From Barthelona sp. PCE (Eukaryota), in the NCBI GenBank assembly GCA_040285745.1, contig JAUFOR010000003.1, positions 372,001-436,000 on the forward strand: a DNA stretch of 64,000 nucleotides, read 5' to 3'. The translations under genes and the position numbers were made by a program. Positions 7,991 through 59,425 of this stretch are shown in pieces. Each line of letters opens with the position of its first letter. The first letter of the stretch is position 1. The notes under the pieces were generated by a model. That model worked only from the letters and a program-made list of their open reading frames with translations, did not search any database and was not told where the DNA came from.

Positions 7991-8024
7991 AAAATTGAAG
8001 ATGTGTTGCAGAAAAGGTTATAGT

Positions 8025-8261
8025 TTTCGTAGGAGGTTGTAAATTTACTTCGGAGTTAGACACTTGTACGGGAGTTGCGAGCTCCCTCGAGTGCTGTGCT
8101 TGCACTGAGAATTGTTCTAGAGCCCTTTTTTTAAAATAAAAGGGGAGAAAGAAATGATGTAAGTACTCACAGAGTACAAGAGGGAAGACCGCGTGTCTAC
8201 TCCTCAGTAGATTTACTCCTACGAAATAGCGTGTTATTCACAAGCGTGCCATACAGCACGT
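8025..8261 (+). ncRNA. Candidate structured non-coding RNA of unknown family
   Basis: Nested complementary arms: 8025-8035/8216-8226, 8039-8049/8206-8216, 8052-8063/8193-8203, 8063-8069/8174-8180, 8089-8095/8162-8168. Hairpins at 8070-8086, 8123-8144 and 8245-8260. The non-Watson-Crick pairs inside the stems are G-U on the + strand. Confidence 0.6.
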
Positions 8262-8602
8262 ATTATTGCTAATTCTATTGGTGTCAGAGAAGATAAACAC
8301 AAAATTTTCCACATAAATGTTGAGGATATGTTGCTATTAGAACATATAATACTTTATGAGTTTCTACACCTTATACCTTATTATATTGTAATTTGCTTGT
8401 TGCAAGTTCTTTTTTTGTCAGGTTTACTTTAAGTTTTGCATCTTTAGTAAGTAGTATTAATTTTTTTGAGCGCAGGTATTTTTTCTGAAACCAAAATTGG
8501 AGTCAAATCATTGTCTAGGAAGCTAAATGTATCACTGTGATGTAGTGAACACAACTGTATGAAGGTCAATGAATTTTACAGTTTGAAAACTATTTTATCT
8601 CC

Positions 8603-8608
8603 CCTTTT
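8603..8608 (+). promoter_or_regulatory. CCTTTT putative initiator-like core promoter element (representative copy, thiolase)
   Basis: The same motif occurs about 5-45 nt upstream of at least 17 start codons in this window (listed in the findings). Confidence 0.55.
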
Positions 8609-8618
8609 CAACAACTAA

Positions 8619-10081: not shown

Positions 10082-11647
10082 ATGACGGTAACAAAGAAGC
10101 CGTTCAACCTTCACAAGGCCAGTGTGATTGTCAAACTGGGCATGCTGTCTCTTGTTCTCATTATTTTTGCAATTTTTGCAACAACCGCAAACCCGGCACC
10201 TACAAATGATGCAGTGGAGACTGCATCGAAAATACCGAAGATTATTCTTTCCATTCTTGGTATTATCTACTGTTTCATTGCAATTTCTATTGTATGTGAT
10301 GGATATTTCGTTGCTGCAGCAGAAACATGCGTTGAGGTACTCAAAATTCCACCATCAGTTGGTGGAGCAACAATTACAGCCATTGGATCCAGTGCTCCAG
10401 AATTATTTACCTCAATTGCGGCATTAATTCAAGGTTCAGATAGTGGTGACAGTGATCTTGGTCTTGCCACCATTGTTGGTTCCGCTATGGTGAATTTATT
10501 AGTAATTATCGGTCTATCATCAATTTTTGCAGGAAAAGTATTAAACCTTGATTACAGACCTTTGCTTCGTGATTCTTTTTTCTATGTACTGTCTATCATT
10601 ATATTGGGCGTCGCTTTACATGATGGTCGTATTGTTTTATGGGAAGCTGTTGGTTTCGTTCTCATTTATGTTAGTTATGTTGTGTTTATGACTCAAAATG
10701 ATAAGATTCTGAACAGATTGCCTGAGCCAAAGCATTTGTCGGATGAGAACTTCCAGAAGAACTTGTCTGCTGTTGATGATGGTAAGACTACCTCTTTACT
10801 TGATGATTATCAAGAAGATGCAAGTTTAACAGAAGAGGGTGAAGGAAATAAGCGTAAATCTATGGATTTTGCTGACGTTGTTCGCTCCAACTATCACAAA
10901 CAGAAATTAAAGGTTGCTGAAACACCTCGTGAACGAGTTAAACATGCTCTTATGGCTGCATATTTCCTCAGTGGCCACACATTTAAGGAAGCAGATAATG
11001 ATATCACAGACGAACACGTTGACGGAGAATCTCAGGATGAAGAAATTGCTCCTTGGTTCAAACCTCCTCCAGGTGGTCTTGCCAAAATTCATTGGTTTAT
11101 ATGTCTTCCAATTAGTTGCGCTTTTGCTTTTACCATTCCTGACTGTCGTAAGAAGCACCTTGAGAAGTGGTGGATGGTGACATTCACTATGTCCATTGCT
11201 TGGGTCGGTTTCATTTCTTATTGTATGGTTGAACTTACATATGGTTTTGGTGCTTTGCTACAGATTGATCCAGTTTATCTGGGTATTCCACTTGCCATCG
11301 GTACTAGTATCCCAGATACACTGTCTAGTGTTCTTATTGCACGCAGTGGTCGTGATGGAGCTGCTAATATGGCAGTATCAAACGGAATGGGTTCTAACGT
11401 CTTTAACATTCTTGTGGGTTGTGGTGCACCTTGGTTGGTTACAATCATTGTCTCTGGTAAGTATGTAGATGTTGATTCCAACGAACTGATTTTTGCAGTC
11501 ATTGTATTAATGACTGTTATGATTTTGATTCTTTTTATTTTCCTTTTGAACGGTTTCCGCCTGACTCCAAAGATTGGTACACTTTTTGTTATTATGTACA
11601 TTTTATATCTGTGTTATCAATTGGGTAACATGTTTGGTTTCTGGTAG
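10082..11647 (+). CDS. SLC24: K+-dependent Na+/Ca2+ exchanger (NCKX, CaCA superfamily)
   Basis: Alpha-1 repeat 'GATITAIGSSAPELFTS...IVGSAMVN' and alpha-2 repeat 'AIGTSIPD...AVSNGMGSNVFNI'. 'FTIPDCRKK' is typical of NCKX. Confidence 0.9.
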   Translation: MTVTKKPFNLHKASVIVKLGMLSLVLIIFAIFATTANPAPTNDAVETASKIPKIILSILGIIYCFIAISIVCDGYFVAAAETCVEVLKIPPSVGGATITAIGSSAPELFTSIAALIQGSDSGDSDLGLATIVGSAMVNLLVIIGLSSIFAGKVLNLDYRPLLRDSFFYVLSIIILGVALHDGRIVLWEAVGFVLIYVSYVVFMTQNDKILNRLPEPKHLSDENFQKNLSAVDDGKTTSLLDDYQEDASLTEEGEGNKRKSMDFADVVRSNYHKQKLKVAETPRERVKHALMAAYFLSGHTFKEADNDITDEHVDGESQDEEIAPWFKPPPGGLAKIHWFICLPISCAFAFTIPDCRKKHLEKWWMVTFTMSIAWVGFISYCMVELTYGFGALLQIDPVYLGIPLAIGTSIPDTLSSVLIARSGRDGAANMAVSNGMGSNVFNILVGCGAPWLVTIIVSGKYVDVDSNELIFAVIVLMTVMILILFIFLLNGFRLTPKIGTLFVIMYILYLCYQLGNMFGFW

Positions 11648-15331: not shown

Positions 15332-15396
15332 GATATGAATAGAATGGGATTAAAAAAGGAAACAAGTTCAAAACTTGCAGATACTCAATTTACAAT

Positions 15397-16155
15397 TTAA
15401 AAGGTAGGAACCCACTGTACTTGGGGAAGAGGCTTAGCTCTAGGACTCTTAGGACGCTTGAAAGGATCTTTTTCTTCATCTTCATCCTCACTCTCGTAAT
15501 CATCCTCTTCTTCTTCATCTTCGTCCTCATCTTCGTTTTTAATAACGATGTATGTACCCTTTTGGACGCAACCGTTAGGGAAAATGAAAGCTCCATCACC
15601 CTTTGGCTCAATAGCAAGACCGCTCATCATGAATGCACCTTCATAGATGACACCAGAGGGGAAGATACGCTTGCCCTTGACAAATTTACCCTCAACCCAT
15701 TCACCTTCGAGGATCTCACCAGTGAGTTTGAATGTGTATTTGCCAAAACCTTGGCGTTTGTCTTCATGCCATTCACCATCGTAAACGTCACCGGAAGCGT
15801 ATGTGTAAACACCAACACCATGCTTGTTGTTGTCCTTCCATTCTCCAACAAATTTGGAACCATCTGGGCAAGTTAATTCACCTTGGCCATTGCGCAGATT
15901 GTTCTCGTAATTGCCTTTGTACACGGCACCATTTGACCATTTGTAAAAACCTTGGCCGTGGCGTTTGCCAGCTGAGTAAGCTCCCTCAAAGATTGCTCCA
16001 GAAGGAAACTCATTGCGGCCTTGACCGTGTCTGCGACCTAATTCATCACGTTCACCCGTGAATGTCTAAATATTAGCTTCTACATTAAGAAAAAAAAATA
16101 TCTTGAAACATACTCCAATAGAAGGAATTTCGGCGTCTGATTCGTAATCGCTCAT
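15397..16155 (-). CDS. RSPH1: Radial spoke head 1 homologue (MORN repeats), two exons 16155-16114 and 16065-15397
   Basis: Spliced N-terminus MSDYESDAEIPSIG|TFTGERDELGRRHGQGRNEFPSGAIFEG..., followed by MORN repeats (YxGxWxxxKxHGxG) and an acidic tail. The splice keeps the frame of ORF 15397..15924. Confidence 0.85.
16066..16113 (-). other. 48-nt spliceosomal intron in RSPH1
   Basis: GTATGT...GCTAATATTTAG, phase 0. It contains in-frame stops, so it must be removed. Confidence 0.85.
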
Positions 16156-16400
16156 GATACTAACTGTTTAAGAAGAAATAAAATACAAGGAAAAGCGGAG
16201 AAAGAGCTGTAACAGTCATGTAGTTTTTTAAAGTTGTTCTTTCATTTTACACCTATTTTAATTCATGAACTGAGTCAATGCAGATGTAGAGGTGCTAAAT
16301 TGTATTCCCATATGTCGTTGACACACATGTACACGGTTTTTTTTGAGTGACCCTGAATTACTTTTCATTTCCGTTTTTCATCCTTTTACACTGCTTAAAT

Positions 16401-19241: not shown

Positions 19242-19886
19242 ATGATAGCACGTAAAAAATCACGTTTGTTGATTGCACTGTATTTATTGCATCGCAAACC
19301 GTCTCATATTTCGGTACAAACATTTGTTCAACAATTGAAAAATACAATCAACGATACTACTCCAAAAGAAACACTTCTACGATTGTTAATGCAAGAAAAA
19401 ACATCCGAGGAAGAGCCACTTATTAATATAAATTCACGAACAGATGTCATATCGCAGTTATCATCAAATATCACTAAGCAACTTCCTCTCCCACAACAGC
19501 AGTATATTTTAAACAATGAAGTGATTGATATGTGCATGGGAAAACGTCATACCATTCCAATACTTGATGCCTTCGAACAAAATAGTTCCATAACAACAAA
19601 AATATCGAAGGGTATCTGTTGGGATCCACAACAGCCCTTAAATATTCAGAAAATACTTTTTAAACGGACAAAACTCATGGAAAAGATGCTCAAAATGAAT
19701 ATAGAATGTGAAATTGAACATAAACAAAGTCCCGTAACTGCACACTTATTTAATAATAATTTCAAGCCCGAAACACTGTCAGAATGGTTAAAAAAGCGTC
19801 AAAAATATCCCGAAAATCAAACAATTCCCCCTATATTAAGAGAATTTTTACAAAAGCAGAAATCAGAAATGTTAAAGAAGCTTTGA
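19242..19886 (+). CDS. Hypothetical protein
   Basis: 214-aa ATG-initiated ORF filling the gap between Sec61a and the large membrane protein. No recognisable motif. Confidence 0.5.
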   Translation: MIARKKSRLLIALYLLHRKPSHISVQTFVQQLKNTINDTTPKETLLRLLMQEKTSEEEPLININSRTDVISQLSSNITKQLPLPQQQYILNNEVIDMCMGKRHTIPILDAFEQNSSITTKISKGICWDPQQPLNIQKILFKRTKLMEKMLKMNIECEIEHKQSPVTAHLFNNNFKPETLSEWLKKRQKYPENQTIPPILREFLQKQKSEMLKKL

Positions 19887-22800: not shown

Positions 22801-25800
22801 AGAATAAATACATTTTTCGTTGCAATATCAACACCAGCAGCATCATCTTCCTCAACGAAGAAGTTATAAACTTCAGTGACATTTGTGTTAACGGTAGGGT
22901 GCTTGGTGATAAATGTTGTTGTGACTGCGGTACCTAACGAAGGATAATCATCATCAATAATGGTGAATTCAACGTTAACTGCACTTCTAACTGTAGCAGT
23001 TGATGCAACTGTCATTTTTTCATCAGAACTGCTGATATGTACAATTGTATCAACTGTAGGTGCTGGATCGATAGTTAGAGAACATGTAAATGTACCAATA
23101 TGCTCCTTAACTCTAAACTGTCCGTCTACCTTGTTTAATCCATCGCATAACAAAATAATATCAGGGGAATCGTTATCTTTGACAGTTGTATCAACAGCCA
23201 AAGTAAGTCCATCGAAAAATGTATCAGCAGAAAGAGTTGTAATGGTAAGACGAGTCACCAAATCACCAGTAATACTGGAATCTGCAAGACCCCAAACTGT
23301 AAGCGGTATGGTGGTGATGTCTGTACCCTTTGTGATGATTTGAGATGCAGCAGACCAAGAAAATCCAAGAATTCCCAATGAATCTGTAACATGAAGTGAC
23401 ACATCATCGTTTGGTTGTTTAGACAATATAATTCCGATGACAGCATGTGTTCCATCATCATCAGTAACAATGGTAGAAACATTTGCTCGCATGTTAGCTT
23501 CGAAAGCTCCACTGAAAGAATATAATGTCGATGTTAGGTAAGACAATGTAAATGAACAAGATCCGTCCTTGATAGCACGGAAGTGACTGTCCATAACACC
23601 GTTTGTTACTATAACAGACGATGTTCCGACTAAGGCACCACATGTTGTCTTCAGACTGAGAACTCCTGTGAAATCGTTGTCATATATATCATGAATTGTA
23701 CCCGTTAAGTCACATAGACGACCAGCAAGGGAACAACTTGTATCATGTGCAAAAGTTGATGTGGCCACGAAGGGGGTACCACTGGTTACAAGAACAGTCT
23801 TTGTACTAATCTCAGTATTTTGATACTTGAATATAATATCAGTAGATTCAGCATTTTCAAATACAATCTTAAGCTTTAAATCACCCTCTTGAGAGTATTT
23901 TTGCAAAAGAACTCCATCAGAATCTATACTATAGTCATCAGCTTCATAATCTGAGGTAGGGTTATCAAATTCATCATAGAAAGACAAAGAACAAACGATT
24001 TCATCACCAGCAGGAACTGTCGTAGGACAATCAATGACTGTTTTAGAATAATCAGCTCCAGCAGGAACAACAGTCCATTCAATATTACCCAATTTAACGT
24101 TCGATACATACAGCTCAGCGTTATATGAACCAATCTTTGTTCCAACGACACTAAAGTATTGCGTGTTTGTTGATTTGGTACTGTAAGTGTATGAGAAACT
24201 CGCGTCGTTACAGTTAACTGGACAATTAACATTTGATGCGTTAAATTCCAAATTGACAGTTGTTCCACCGCTCACGAGAACATCTCCGACGGCAGTCAGA
24301 AGACCAGCACTGACTTTTGCGGCAGGATACGATGTGATAGCACCTTGACAACCCTTACTAACATCAACACGACGTACAGAGCATGAATCACCATCCCAAC
24401 ATGTGTCACAATCGCACGTTCCACCATCACAAACACCACGTTCGTATTCGCTAAGACAATCACTGGGACAGCCAACGAATTCAAACTTGTGTCTTTCAGA
24501 GTAGAATGTAGCATTTCCAACTTGTAAAATTACCAAACAATAACCTGCAGAAGGAACGTAGAAACCACTATCAAGTGATCCATCTTCTTCAGATGTATAA
24601 CTCATTGACCATGTTGCATCAGAGCAAATAACATTCATACTCATAGTAGCTTGAATTGTGTTATTGAGTTCGTTCCTGAACACACAATCAACATCGTGTG
24701 TTAAAAAGGCTGTTGAACCAACGTTGACATCACATACAGAAGTGTTTGTGTAAACAACATCAGTACCACGATATGGTTGTGGGATATCATACTCAAGAAC
24801 GTTATCGTACAGACACAAACTCATTGTAGTGTTGTAATAACAACCAACGAGTGTGTTACAAGCACTTTCATCAGTCTCAGTTGGACAATCATGGTAAAGA
24901 ACTGGACTAGTTGGACAACTGGCATCAACACTTTGGAACACGAGATTCGACTCAGTCGGATATCGTACGACTCCACCATCGCCCTTTGTCATGTAAATGG
25001 CAAAATGTGAGCAAGTATAACCGTGACTGTCATCAACAACAACCTTGTATACATAACCAGTTGTTGCATCACCATATAATTGTGTAATGTCTTCGATTTT
25101 GTAAAAGTTACCAATATCATCGTACAGTAAAACATAAACTTCCAAAGCGTCAACAATATTGGTAACAAAGAAAATATTCTTGGGTACTGTTGTATGATAG
25201 ACACCAAAAATACCCTTGGGAACTGCACCATCTGCGGAGCCTACGAACGTTGGAATAGCACTACCTTCATATTGACCACCAAATGAGAAATATCCTCGAT
25301 CAACAGAATAAAGGTAATCACGGTAGCTCTCCATCAAAGATGAATCAAAACCACTATCTAAGAATACATTATATATAAACTGCTCACCGGATGTCGCAGC
25401 TACGTTTACGGCAGTGATATTATAAGTTCCAGCAACACCAGACACTTTTTCAACAAAATAATCTGCTTCAAACCCTGAAACTTTGATATCTGTGGGATTC
25501 AGACCAGTGAAATGATCAAACCCTTCATCTGTAAGCCTTTTGCCAGCAATATCAGTGGCCAGTTTCAAAGATGAATCAAAATACATTGGTTCTCTGTTAA
25601 CGTCAGGAAATGATAATGAACTAATTGTACTTGTACTCTCAAAATTAACAACGTACTTTTGATTATTGAGCCTAAAAGCGTTTAAGAAAAACTGACCTTC
25701 CAACTCTTTCTTGGTAGCAATAGCATCAACATCACTTGAAAGAGCGTTGGGGTGAATGAAATTATTCGCCACATCAGAACCTTCAATAGTGTATTCGCTA

Positions 25801-27605: not shown

Positions 27606-28007
27606 ATGGGCAAATCTTCAAAGAAAAACAAGAAAACACCTCAAATAGCACCATATTTGGATCAAGCAGCCCAAAGAATACAATATTTGGACAGAATATC
27701 CAGAATGGTAGCCAATTTACCAACATTATCACAGTTTTATGGAAGCAGCCTGTACAAAATTCGAAACAAGCATTCAATTCGCCTTCCCAATCAAATGAAG
27801 GCATTGAACTGCAAGCAATGCGGACTTAGCTTGTCGCACATGGGTAATTGTAGCGTAAAATACGATTTCTCAACAGAAACACCAATTGTTCGTTTTAAAT
27901 GCAAAGTCTGTAGTTTTTCTAATATTCTACAGACAAAAAAACTATTTACTGAGAGCAAGGCACACAATACCGATAAGCATAAGAACAACACTGAAGAAAA
28001 AGATTAG
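27606..28007 (+). CDS. RPP21: RNase P/MRP subunit Rpr2/RPP21/SNM1 family
   Basis: 'QRIQYL', 'LSQFYG...KIRNKHSIRL...MKALNCKQCG' and a second CxxC 'FKCKVC'. Confidence 0.8.
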   Translation: MGKSSKKNKKTPQIAPYLDQAAQRIQYLDRISRMVANLPTLSQFYGSSLYKIRNKHSIRLPNQMKALNCKQCGLSLSHMGNCSVKYDFSTETPIVRFKCKVCSFSNILQTKKLFTESKAHNTDKHKNNTEEKD

Positions 28008-58879: not shown

Positions 58880-59425
58880 TTAGATATAACGGCGCACCTT
58901 TGACTTATATTCACGATAATCATCACCATGACTAGATTCCAAATAAATTTCTTCACTTTTTATCATCAAATGGATAAAAACAAATATCATCAGAAACCCT
59001 ACTGCGAGATATACGGAACGAAGAGCCACAGCATAGCCAATAGAATAAAGAATTATGGAAAAAAAGTAAGGATTTCTGGAAAAGCGGTATACACCATGTG
59101 TGATGAGATCTGTATCTTGATTCTCAAGAACTCCAACCCTCCATGATGCACCAATATCGTACAGTGCACTGAAACAGAAAAAATAAGATAAAATACACAA
59201 CACAATGAATGTTACAAACGTATATAACTCAAAAACTGGTTCTTGGAAGAATGACAATGCCAGGGAACCAGCAATGTATATGATAATGGATACAATACTG
59301 CATACTGCCTGCCAATTCTTGGAACTAATAGACTCACCTGTTTCTTTCCTAGTTTTGATATTTTTTGTGAACCATGCCCCTTGAAATACAAGCTGATGCA
59401 CCAAAAAACTGATTAACTACAACAT
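58880..59425 (-). pseudogene. Isoprenylcysteine carboxyl methyltransferase / PEMT-family membrane methyltransferase with unresolved 5' end (in-frame TAG at codon 3)
   Basis: 'IGASWRVGV...LITHGVYRFSRNPYF...EEIYL..HGDDYREYKSKVRRYI' is the ICMT/PEMT signature. The only in-frame ATG upstream (59425) is followed by TTG TAG. Confidence 0.55.

Follow-up and report, generated by a model that had tools for sequence, protein, structure and literature searches.

Passages of PMC6679479 report that diplomonad snRNAs escape Rfam-based searches, and parts of PMC4605306 describe how the SRP RNAs of the basidiomycetes, those of a whole phylum, were missed by computational searches. For Giardia, passages of PMC3510501 describe a 12-nt motif for the 3' processing of non-coding RNAs which, by the account given in parts of PMC6679479, is not conserved even in Spironucleus. 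The same account describes long introns of Giardia, Spironucleus and Trichomonas in which stems bring the splice sites together, and a U5 snRNA in which loop I, UGCCUUUUACY, caps the 6-bp stem Ic at the far end of an extended stem-loop. In Trichomonas vaginalis, CCTTT is the signature of the m5 core promoter, as stated in a passage of PMC7370421 that cites Smith et al. (2011).

Here we describe a ~200-base inverted repeat, far from random, that lies in the spacer separating two divergently transcribed genes. It was found within a window of 64 kb, by which we mean the whole stretch of DNA that was analysed. Our preferred, still tentative reading, to which we assign a probability of roughly 0.4, is that the element is a DNA-level foldback made of two diverged inverted copies of one ~85-100 bp unit.

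The window is very compact, with long ORFs on alternating strands and convergent stop codons only 3-46 nt apart. Its genes include those for a DRG GTPase, Sec61-alpha, PheRS-beta, TMEM144, TMEM234, an IQUB-domain protein and a MORN-repeat protein, a content that points to a eukaryotic flagellate, and the host is probably a fast-evolving, metamonad-like flagellated protist. In a collection of 5.8 billion proteins, the thiolase encoded on one side of the element is at most 56% identical to anything, and the DRG GTPase at most 51%, its best named matches (47-48%) coming from Carpediemonas and from isolates named 'Eukaryota sp.' The phosphatase encoded on the other side matches only itself, the database protein from this contig having the same 158 aa as the ORF. 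Through the relatives of the thiolase, the DRG GTPase and the phosphatase, no orthologous locus was found that could be used for covariation.

Anatomy and folding of the inverted repeat

The spacer (7991-8618, 628 nt) runs between a dual-specificity phosphatase gene and a thiolase gene. The initial annotation, made from the sequence alone, had called it unusually long; it is indeed among the longest in the window, but it is not unique, as gaps of 630 and 525 nt also occur, the 630-nt gap holding an exon and an intron of the PheRS-beta gene. The stretches from which a nested RNA fold had been drawn up are all present where they had been placed. The outer left arm (8025-8063) is composed of three helix strands (8025-8034, 8039-8049 and 8052-8063) that pair with the outer right arm (8193-8226). 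Both ends of the element are formed by the exact 11-mer TTTCGTAGGAG, in inverted orientation, and this 11-mer occurs nowhere else in the 64-kb window even when one mismatch is allowed. Further in, the left arm (8064-8122) contains local hairpins at 8070-8086 and, as AGTGC/GCACT, at 8090-8106; its pairing to the right arm is ambiguous (pair probabilities of 0.0 to 0.7), yet the two can be aligned. The apex (8123-8144) reads GAGCCCTTTTTTTAAAA and holds CCCTTTT on the + strand (8123) and again on the - strand (8144), each copy pointing across the apex, with the C/T run paired rather than looped. The inner right arm (8145-8192) comprises the near-palindrome GTAAGTACTCAC (8160-8171), a local hairpin at 8163-8177 and a stretch of 12 nt (8181-8192) that had been described as a one-sided bulge. 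A run of seven T lies in the middle of the element on the + strand, and the GC content of the element is 43%, compared with 33% for the non-coding and 38% for the coding DNA of the same window.

A flanking hairpin on the + strand, CGTGC-CATACA-GCACG (8245-8260), had also been counted as part of the structure. The hairpin is present, but it is an ordinary stem of 5-6 bp, a terminator-like scan finding one such site where 0.6 would be expected, and its membership in the element is doubtful. For a eukaryote, the scan for bacterial-type promoters and terminators is uninformative.

The fold itself is real and non-random. When the 202-nt core and a 251-nt stretch were each shuffled 200 times per sequence and strand, none of the shuffles was as good as the native sequence. 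The core reached a minimum free energy (MFE) of -77.3 kcal/mol on the + strand (z -6.08; 0/200) and of -71.7 kcal/mol on the - strand (z -7.45; 0/200), and the corresponding values for the longer stretch were -88.5 kcal/mol (z -5.57; 0/200) and -82.2 kcal/mol (z -6.73; 0/200). The unusual stability that had been anticipated for this element was thereby borne out on + and - alike. In a fold scan of the whole window, which used 220-nt frames at a step of 40 with the MFE regressed on GC and whose frames clip the element, the frame at 8001 took rank 1 on the + strand (z -3.73) and rank 12 among the best 12 listed on the - strand (z -2.34).

The pairing model of the initial annotation used C8216 and C8063 in two helices each; with these two positions resolved, it could be written in dot-bracket form with 62 pairs, none of them non-canonical and four of them G-U (8045/8210, 8075/8081, 8093/8164 and 8102/8160). 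Its energy is -65.7 kcal/mol, and the MFE structure (-77.3) is better by 11.6 kcal/mol. What is robust in the nested fold is the outer rod of ~32 bp (8025-8063/8193-8226), with mean pair probabilities of 0.90-1.0 in each of its four helices; the remainder is thermodynamically not robust. The three-way junction that had been placed on top of the rod is unsupported, with pair probabilities of 0.17 (8064/8179), 0.32 (hairpin 8070-8086) and 0.00 (8089/8168), and the stem at 8101/8161 has a mean of 0.70. The pairs of the proposed apical hairpin (8123-8144) are canonical, but their mean probability is only 0.32. The supposed bulge at 8181-8192 turns out to be paired in the MFE structure, in which AGGGA(A)G joins CUCCCU (8081-8086) and replaces the small hairpin, competing with 8070-8074 for 8081-8086. 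As modelled here, the inner architecture is thermodynamically undefined.

From the G-U pairs within the stems, it had been concluded that selection acts on a + strand RNA rather than on a DNA palindrome. We find this conclusion unsupported. The + strand MFE structure has 70 pairs, 5 of them G-U and 65 Watson-Crick (93%), and the - strand structure has 64 pairs, 2 of them G-U and 62 Watson-Crick, a difference (5/70 versus 2/64) that is statistically empty. The inference of + strand selection fails because G-U pairs are too few to carry it and because the - strand is the larger outlier when each strand is compared with its own shuffles. The case for a novel structured RNA is accordingly unproven, its main argument having failed.

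The fold signal is purely one of arm against arm, since neither arm is structured alone: the left arm by itself (8025-8122) has a z of -0.41, and single arms on either strand, with z values of -0.27 to -1.89, are unremarkable. Aligned with the reverse complement of the right arm, the left arm shows 63 identities over 110 columns, and 31 of these fall in the first 39. Because the arms can be aligned and are unstructured when taken singly, the element looks like two inverted copies of a unit of ~85-100 bp that are related by descent, and the bulges and internal loops of the fold are, to judge from the alignment, indels and substitutions between the two copies.

Comparison with known RNA families and introns

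At gathering scores, Rfam 15 yielded no match in the 64 kb. With the threshold relaxed to E<=10, a search of 1.2 kb returned two weak matches to snoRNA models (8479-8581), both outside the element, and a search of 281 nt returned DUF2693 alone, at 11.8 bits against a gathering score of 81.3, which is noise. The element therefore has no family match at E<=10, in agreement with the initial annotation, which found no convincing signature of the RNA classes that it considered. A relaxed scan of the whole window gave six weak and implausible matches, all away from the element, and ARAGORN found no tRNA gene in the 64-kb window. Such negatives are weaker than usual here, because the diplomonad snRNAs and the basidiomycete SRP RNAs escaped similar searches.

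SRP (7SL) RNA resembles the element in its rod shape, in the pairing of its 5' and 3' parts and in the possible three-way junction at the far end. The features that we compared, as set out in passages of PMC4605306, are the symmetric and asymmetric internal loops of helix 8, its conserved apical loop and its position next to helix 6. By eye as well as by Rfam, no helix with symmetric and asymmetric loops was found on either strand, and the earlier statement that the element has no convincing SRP helix 8 holds. In the + strand fold, CCCUUUU/AAAAGGG closes an A/U-rich loop at the end of the long branch, and the short branch has 6 bp and a loop of UGCGA; in the - strand fold, the second branch is a hairpin of 5 bp. 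Neither strand has branches whose order and sizes would suit helices 6 and 8 of SRP RNA, none of the Rfam models for SRP is matched, and the junction is thermodynamically unsupported. The - strand has a small 5' hairpin (8260-8245) followed by UGUGA ahead of the rod, which loosely recalls the SRP Alu domain and resembles the position of UGUNR as far as the quoted passages describe it. In the MFE structure, GUG is paired, and the second hairpin has 3 bp.

The comparison with RNase P and RNase MRP was likewise negative. The conserved regions of these RNAs form the P4 pseudoknot, and a P3 hairpin follows P2. In the element, the three outer helices follow one another without an intervening P3-type hairpin, and Rfam reports neither an RNaseP_nuc nor an RNase_MRP match, in line with the lack of an RNase P/MRP signature recorded at the outset. 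The window does contain a gene for an Rpr2/Rpp21 RNase P/MRP protein (27606-28004), which means that the genome must encode at least one RNA of this kind.

Several other candidates were considered and set aside. The apex GAGCCCTTTTTTTAAAA does not fit loop I of U5 snRNA within two mismatches when inspected by eye, and its C/T run is paired. Resemblances to a telomerase template, to the snRNAs U1, U2, U3 and U6 and to snoRNAs of the box C/D or H/ACA type failed on inspection or in Rfam. Two convergent paralogous small RNA genes make a weak candidate, with single-arm z values of -0.27 to -1.89 and 1 of 12 pairs compensatory in a two-sequence consensus fold. The + strand 12-mer at 8123-8134 fits the Giardia 3'-processing consensus at 12/12 positions and, like the motif in Giardia non-coding RNA genes, follows a GC-richer unit of ~100 nt. 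This consensus has six matches in the 128 kb of window strands, and the - strand copy at the apex misfits. Unlike in Giardia, neither arm is structured alone, and the related motif in this host marks gene starts, not RNA ends.

Three introns in the window provided us with the splice signals of the host. They lie in the genes for Sec61-alpha (18771-18642, 130 nt; 5' GTTTGT, 3' CTAAC ACCT AG), the MORN-repeat protein (16113-16066, 48 nt; 5' GTATGT, 3' CTAAT ATTT AG) and PheRS-beta (30742-30669, 74 nt; 5' GTATGT, 3' CTTAC ATTT AG), and the consensus drawn from them (n=3) is GTWTGT at the 5' site and CTWAY, 4 nt and AG at the 3' site. The extended 5' site and the branch point fused to the 3' site are like those of the diplomonad and parabasalid introns described in parts of PMC6679479, and a stable internal stem would bring flanking sites close, as in the structured long introns of that account. 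The hairpin might be such a stem, within a long spliceosomal intron that belongs to the phosphatase gene, the thiolase gene or an unannotated small gene, a reading for which one can cite the stems known from long introns of Giardia, Spironucleus and Trichomonas, the Giardia/Trichomonas-type introns of the host genome, a GT (8017) and an AG (8229) that bracket the hairpin on the + strand, and an ATG at 8001 that would join in frame to the open frame 8230-8432. We consider this reading very improbable. Both consensus splice signals are absent from either strand of 7991-8618, where none of the 121 window matches to GTWTGT and none of the 20 to CTWAY plus 4 nt plus AG is found, and the supposed branch site falls within the terminal helix. 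The N-termini of the phosphatase and the thiolase are complete, and the database phosphatase is the plain 158-aa ORF. Unlike the introns described in those passages, the hairpin is without flanking host splice signals and interrupts no gene.

The specific gene models built on an intron were rejected as well. A - strand phosphatase intron (exon 1 at about 8313-8256, GTATGG) has no consensus signals, and the phosphatase gene's own CCTTT motif between the hairpin and the ATG and the 158-aa database protein also speak against it. A 5' exon of the thiolase gene meets an N-terminus that is already complete, with a Pfam match from residue 4 and a stop codon directly before the ATG. A small + strand gene, starting at ATG 8155 or 8001 and spliced to the frame that ends at 8432, has no splice signals; its 47-aa part (8289-8429) has no match, not even to itself, among 1.84 billion representatives, and neither that part nor 8211-8429 has a Pfam match. 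Of the open frames that cross the hairpin, neither the one of 85 aa on the - strand nor those of 46 and 45 aa on the + strand gave a hit in Pfam.

CCTTT-type motifs and the flanking promoters

CCTTT occurs in 12 of the 33 50-nt regions upstream of ATGs, where 1.65 would be expected (a 7-fold enrichment), at distances of -14 to -48. Judged by the passages of PMC7370421 on the T. vaginalis m5 element, the host motif is like m5 in lying 14-48 nt upstream of the ATGs of these 12/33 genes. Two further copies form the apex of the hairpin and, unlike m5, have no gene-sized ORF downstream. The spacer contains four CCTTT sites in all, one in the phosphatase promoter, one in the thiolase promoter and one per strand at the apex. 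The phosphatase site, CCTTTTC (8011-8017, - strand), lies 27 nt before the ATG, in the 34 nt between the hairpin and the gene, and is a candidate proximal core promoter. The thiolase site, CCCTTTTC (8602-8609, + strand), lies 17 nt before the ATG and is part of a module common to the promoter of the next gene.

The promoters of the phosphatase and thiolase genes repeat a single module in inverted orientation, 8005-8017 corresponding to 8603-8615 and 8020-8028 to 8585-8593. At the apex, 8138-8153 inversely matches 8593-8608, and the - strand apex has CTCCCCTTTT in common with the thiolase promoter. Upstream of the whole hairpin, no CCTTT-type motif was found in the spacer on either strand, nor, on the + strand, further upstream in the phosphatase ORF when inspected by eye. 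Because the phosphatase motif lies between the hairpin and the ATG, the hairpin need not be contained in the phosphatase mRNA. The proposal that the element acts as a leader for the thiolase gene is unlikely, since that gene has its own CCTTT-type motif 17 nt before the ATG and since a + strand transcript beginning at the hairpin's left base would contain nine ATGs ahead of the thiolase start codon.

Origin and possible function of the hairpin

According to the foldback reading that we favour, the two unit copies would be the left arm (8025-8122) and the right arm (8146-8226), each ending centrally in a CCYTTTT motif. Their likeliest origin would be a local inverted duplication or the insertion of a small non-autonomous MITE-like foldback element, and the hairpin would be a by-product of this descent, not a structure held by selection on RNA. 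The inverted-repeat anatomy, its statistical reality, the dominance of Watson-Crick pairs and the equal foldability of both strands are direct observations, and what we weighed in favour of a foldback is that both strands fold, that 93% of the pairs are Watson-Crick, that the arms can be aligned, that the inner fold is undefined and that no family matches. Like MITEs and foldback elements, the element is ~200 bp long, has terminal inverted repeats (the exact 11-mer) with subterminal inverted similarity, forms a long hairpin on both strands and lies in a promoter region. Unlike them, it shows no convincing target-site duplication, has no second copy in the 64 kb and has a GC content above, not below, the local background. 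TAG is present at both flanks only if the left end is set at 8024, which leaves an unpaired T, and allowing for such offsets we estimate the chance of this at ~0.1; there is no clean target-site duplication at the element ends. Within the 64-kb window, BLASTN finds the element itself and its own inverted match, and neither a second copy nor truncated copies nor a sequence from which the unit could have been duplicated. When metagenomes were scanned for the arm pattern, four loci emerged, none of which continues into the element, all being chance matches that end after the pattern. Structured RNA genes in AT-rich genomes are often GC-richer than their background, and the GC content of 43% hints against a foldback. 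The + strand excess of G-U pairs (5 versus 2) counts slightly against it, and the retention of a diverged 200-bp repeat by a compact genome that would be expected to delete useless DNA hints at a function.

The element might instead be a stand-alone structured non-coding RNA gene, whose promoter would lie beyond the hairpin and whose transcript would span both arms, a reading that we regard as possible though on the unlikely side. Its product might be lineage-specific, a known RNP RNA (of the SRP, RNase P/MRP or snRNA class) so divergent that covariance models miss it, or a Dicer-processed hairpin RNA. Such a gene would accommodate the exceptional stability of the fold, the GC content of 43% on a non-coding background of 33%, the location in a spacer that ranks among the longest of this very compact genome and the survival of a diverged repeat where almost no DNA is wasted; the host is a long-branch member of a lineage with divergent RNAs, it must possess an RNase P/MRP RNA, and the small hairpin and UGUGA before the rod on the - strand offer a loose SRP parallel. 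Against this stand the absence of any Rfam match at E<=10 even with 281 nt searched, the absence of the defining SRP features on either strand and of the U5 loop I motif at the apex (within two mismatches, by eye), a pairing that is 93% Watson-Crick and can form on both strands, and an inner architecture that is thermodynamically undefined in our models. The seven-T run in the middle of the element also counts against it on the + strand, as a T-run of seven would stop RNA polymerase III in most eukaryotes. We judge it unlikely that the element is a true RNA gene of a long-branch, metamonad-like protist, whether for an aberrant form of a universal RNP RNA that covariance models overlook, as happened with the basidiomycete SRP RNAs, or for a lineage-specific hairpin RNA born from an inverted duplication and fed to RNase III or Dicer. 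It shares with inverted-duplication hairpin-RNA loci and young miRNA-type loci the two inverted, diverged copies and the mostly Watson-Crick pairing, and its outer rod of ~32 bp suffices for RNase III-type enzymes. With a foldback of the kind we prefer, any read-through transcript of either strand would form this rod, and the rod might hinder scanning or serve as a substrate for RNase III or Dicer. That the element is a cis-acting module of a promoter or leader, in which the two central CCTTT-type motifs would be real start sites, strikes us as rather unlikely. In this scenario, the leftward motif would give the phosphatase a second leader of ~150 nt that consists of the left arm; or else the whole hairpin would be part of a longer transcript and act as a brake on translation, 34 nt ahead of the phosphatase AUG. 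The 7-fold enrichment of the motif class upstream of ATGs, the CTCCCCTTTT common to the - strand apex and the thiolase promoter and the inverted-module relationship of the two flanking promoters all speak for it, as does the scarcity of ATGs on the - strand, with none in the 202-nt hairpin (2.9 expected; P about 0.06) and one from 8290 to the phosphatase start (4.2 expected); a leftward apex start would meet no AUG ahead of the phosphatase start. However, a motif at -27, well within the usual range, is already available to the phosphatase gene, the + strand apex motif is followed only by the two-codon ORF ATGATGTAA, and the motif pattern has 192 matches on both strands of the window, which makes any one match a poor predictor, with an estimated probability of ~0.06 for a chance match in the ~20-nt apex. 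The 5' leaders of T. vaginalis, as described in passages of PMC7370421, are very short. The remaining probability falls to chance or to a reading that we have not considered.

Even if the element originated as a foldback, its central motifs, which are of the same kind as the start-proximal promoter motif, might start transcripts of half the hairpin, and one of these would give the phosphatase a longer, AUG-free leader. Both the apex as a promoter and the apex as a 3'-processing motif are leads only.

Should the element be transcribed as a unit, it would be among the first non-coding RNAs to be reported from a branch of the eukaryotes that has hardly been sampled. Should it be a foldback relic, it would mean little beyond annotation, namely that a compact genome tolerates a diverged 200-bp palindrome in a promoter. 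Two by-products of the analysis are perhaps more useful than the hairpin itself: the intron signals of the host and the CCTTT-type start-proximal motif that it shares with Trichomonas, which together can guide the annotation of genes and RNAs across the whole genome.

Three intron-bearing genes

The GC-rich interval at 15332-16400, which had appeared as a gap, is occupied by a previously unlisted gene for a MORN-repeat protein (15397-16155, - strand; Pfam MORN, E 2.5e-32). Its first exon (16155-16114) is followed by a 48-nt intron (16113-16066) that starts with GTATGTTT and ends with CTAATATTTAG, and its second exon is an open frame ending at 15397. The Sec61-alpha gene (18843-17319, - strand) is likewise split, with a first exon of 24 codons (18843-18772) and a 130-nt intron (18771-18642) running from GTTTGTTT to CACTAACACCTAG. 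In the PheRS-beta gene (30855-28980, - strand), exon 1 (30855-30743) codes for the B1-domain N terminus and precedes a 74-nt intron (30742-30669) with GTATGTCC at its start and CTTACATTTAG at its end.

Further introns may be present. An ICMT/PEMT methyltransferase domain (E 6e-11) is encoded on the - strand at 58883-59416 by an open frame of 178 codons; this frame lacks an early ATG and probably depends on an upstream exon. On the + strand, CTTACCTCTAG at 19126 matches the branch/3' splice pattern; it is located in the gap that immediately precedes the ORF with its start at 19242, and may mark another intron.

Start-proximal motifs and inverted repeats

Across the whole window, the motif CCTTT is about 7-fold enriched before start codons, being found within 50 nt upstream of 12 of the 33 ORF ATGs against 1.65 expected; among these 33 upstream regions, its distance to the ATG is typically 14-48 nt. 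The motif lies about 15 nt before the Sec61-alpha ATG on the - strand, the PheRS-beta ATG is preceded by CCTTTTCAAC, which is also found in the thiolase promoter, and thiolase and the next gene (start at 10082) have in common a module of about 20 nt, TTTTATCTCCC(C/A)TTT(T)CAACA.

The proximal promoter regions of the phosphatase (8005-8028) and thiolase (8585-8615) genes are inverted copies of each other, reading GAAAACTAT ... CCTTTTC ... CAAC, so that an inverted repeat encloses the entire spacer of 628 nt.

Gene density and RNA-related genes

Compaction in the window is extreme, with 3-46 nt between convergent ORFs and one such pair overlapping, at 19872-19886. Within these 64 kb, no Rfam family was found at gathering score and no tRNA gene was found by ARAGORN. 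A 133-aa ORF at 27606-28004 (+ strand), overlapping the 3' end of the opposite-strand TMEM144 ORF, carries an Rpr2/Rpp21/SNM1 domain (E 1.4e-10) and encodes a protein subunit of RNase P/MRP, from which an RNase P RNA, an MRP RNA or both are to be expected in this organism.

The longest inverted repeat of the window (22987-23014 and 23180-23207; 28 nt, 82% complementary, 165 nt apart) is located within a 2376-aa ORF, and its region ranks third in the + strand folding-stability scan.
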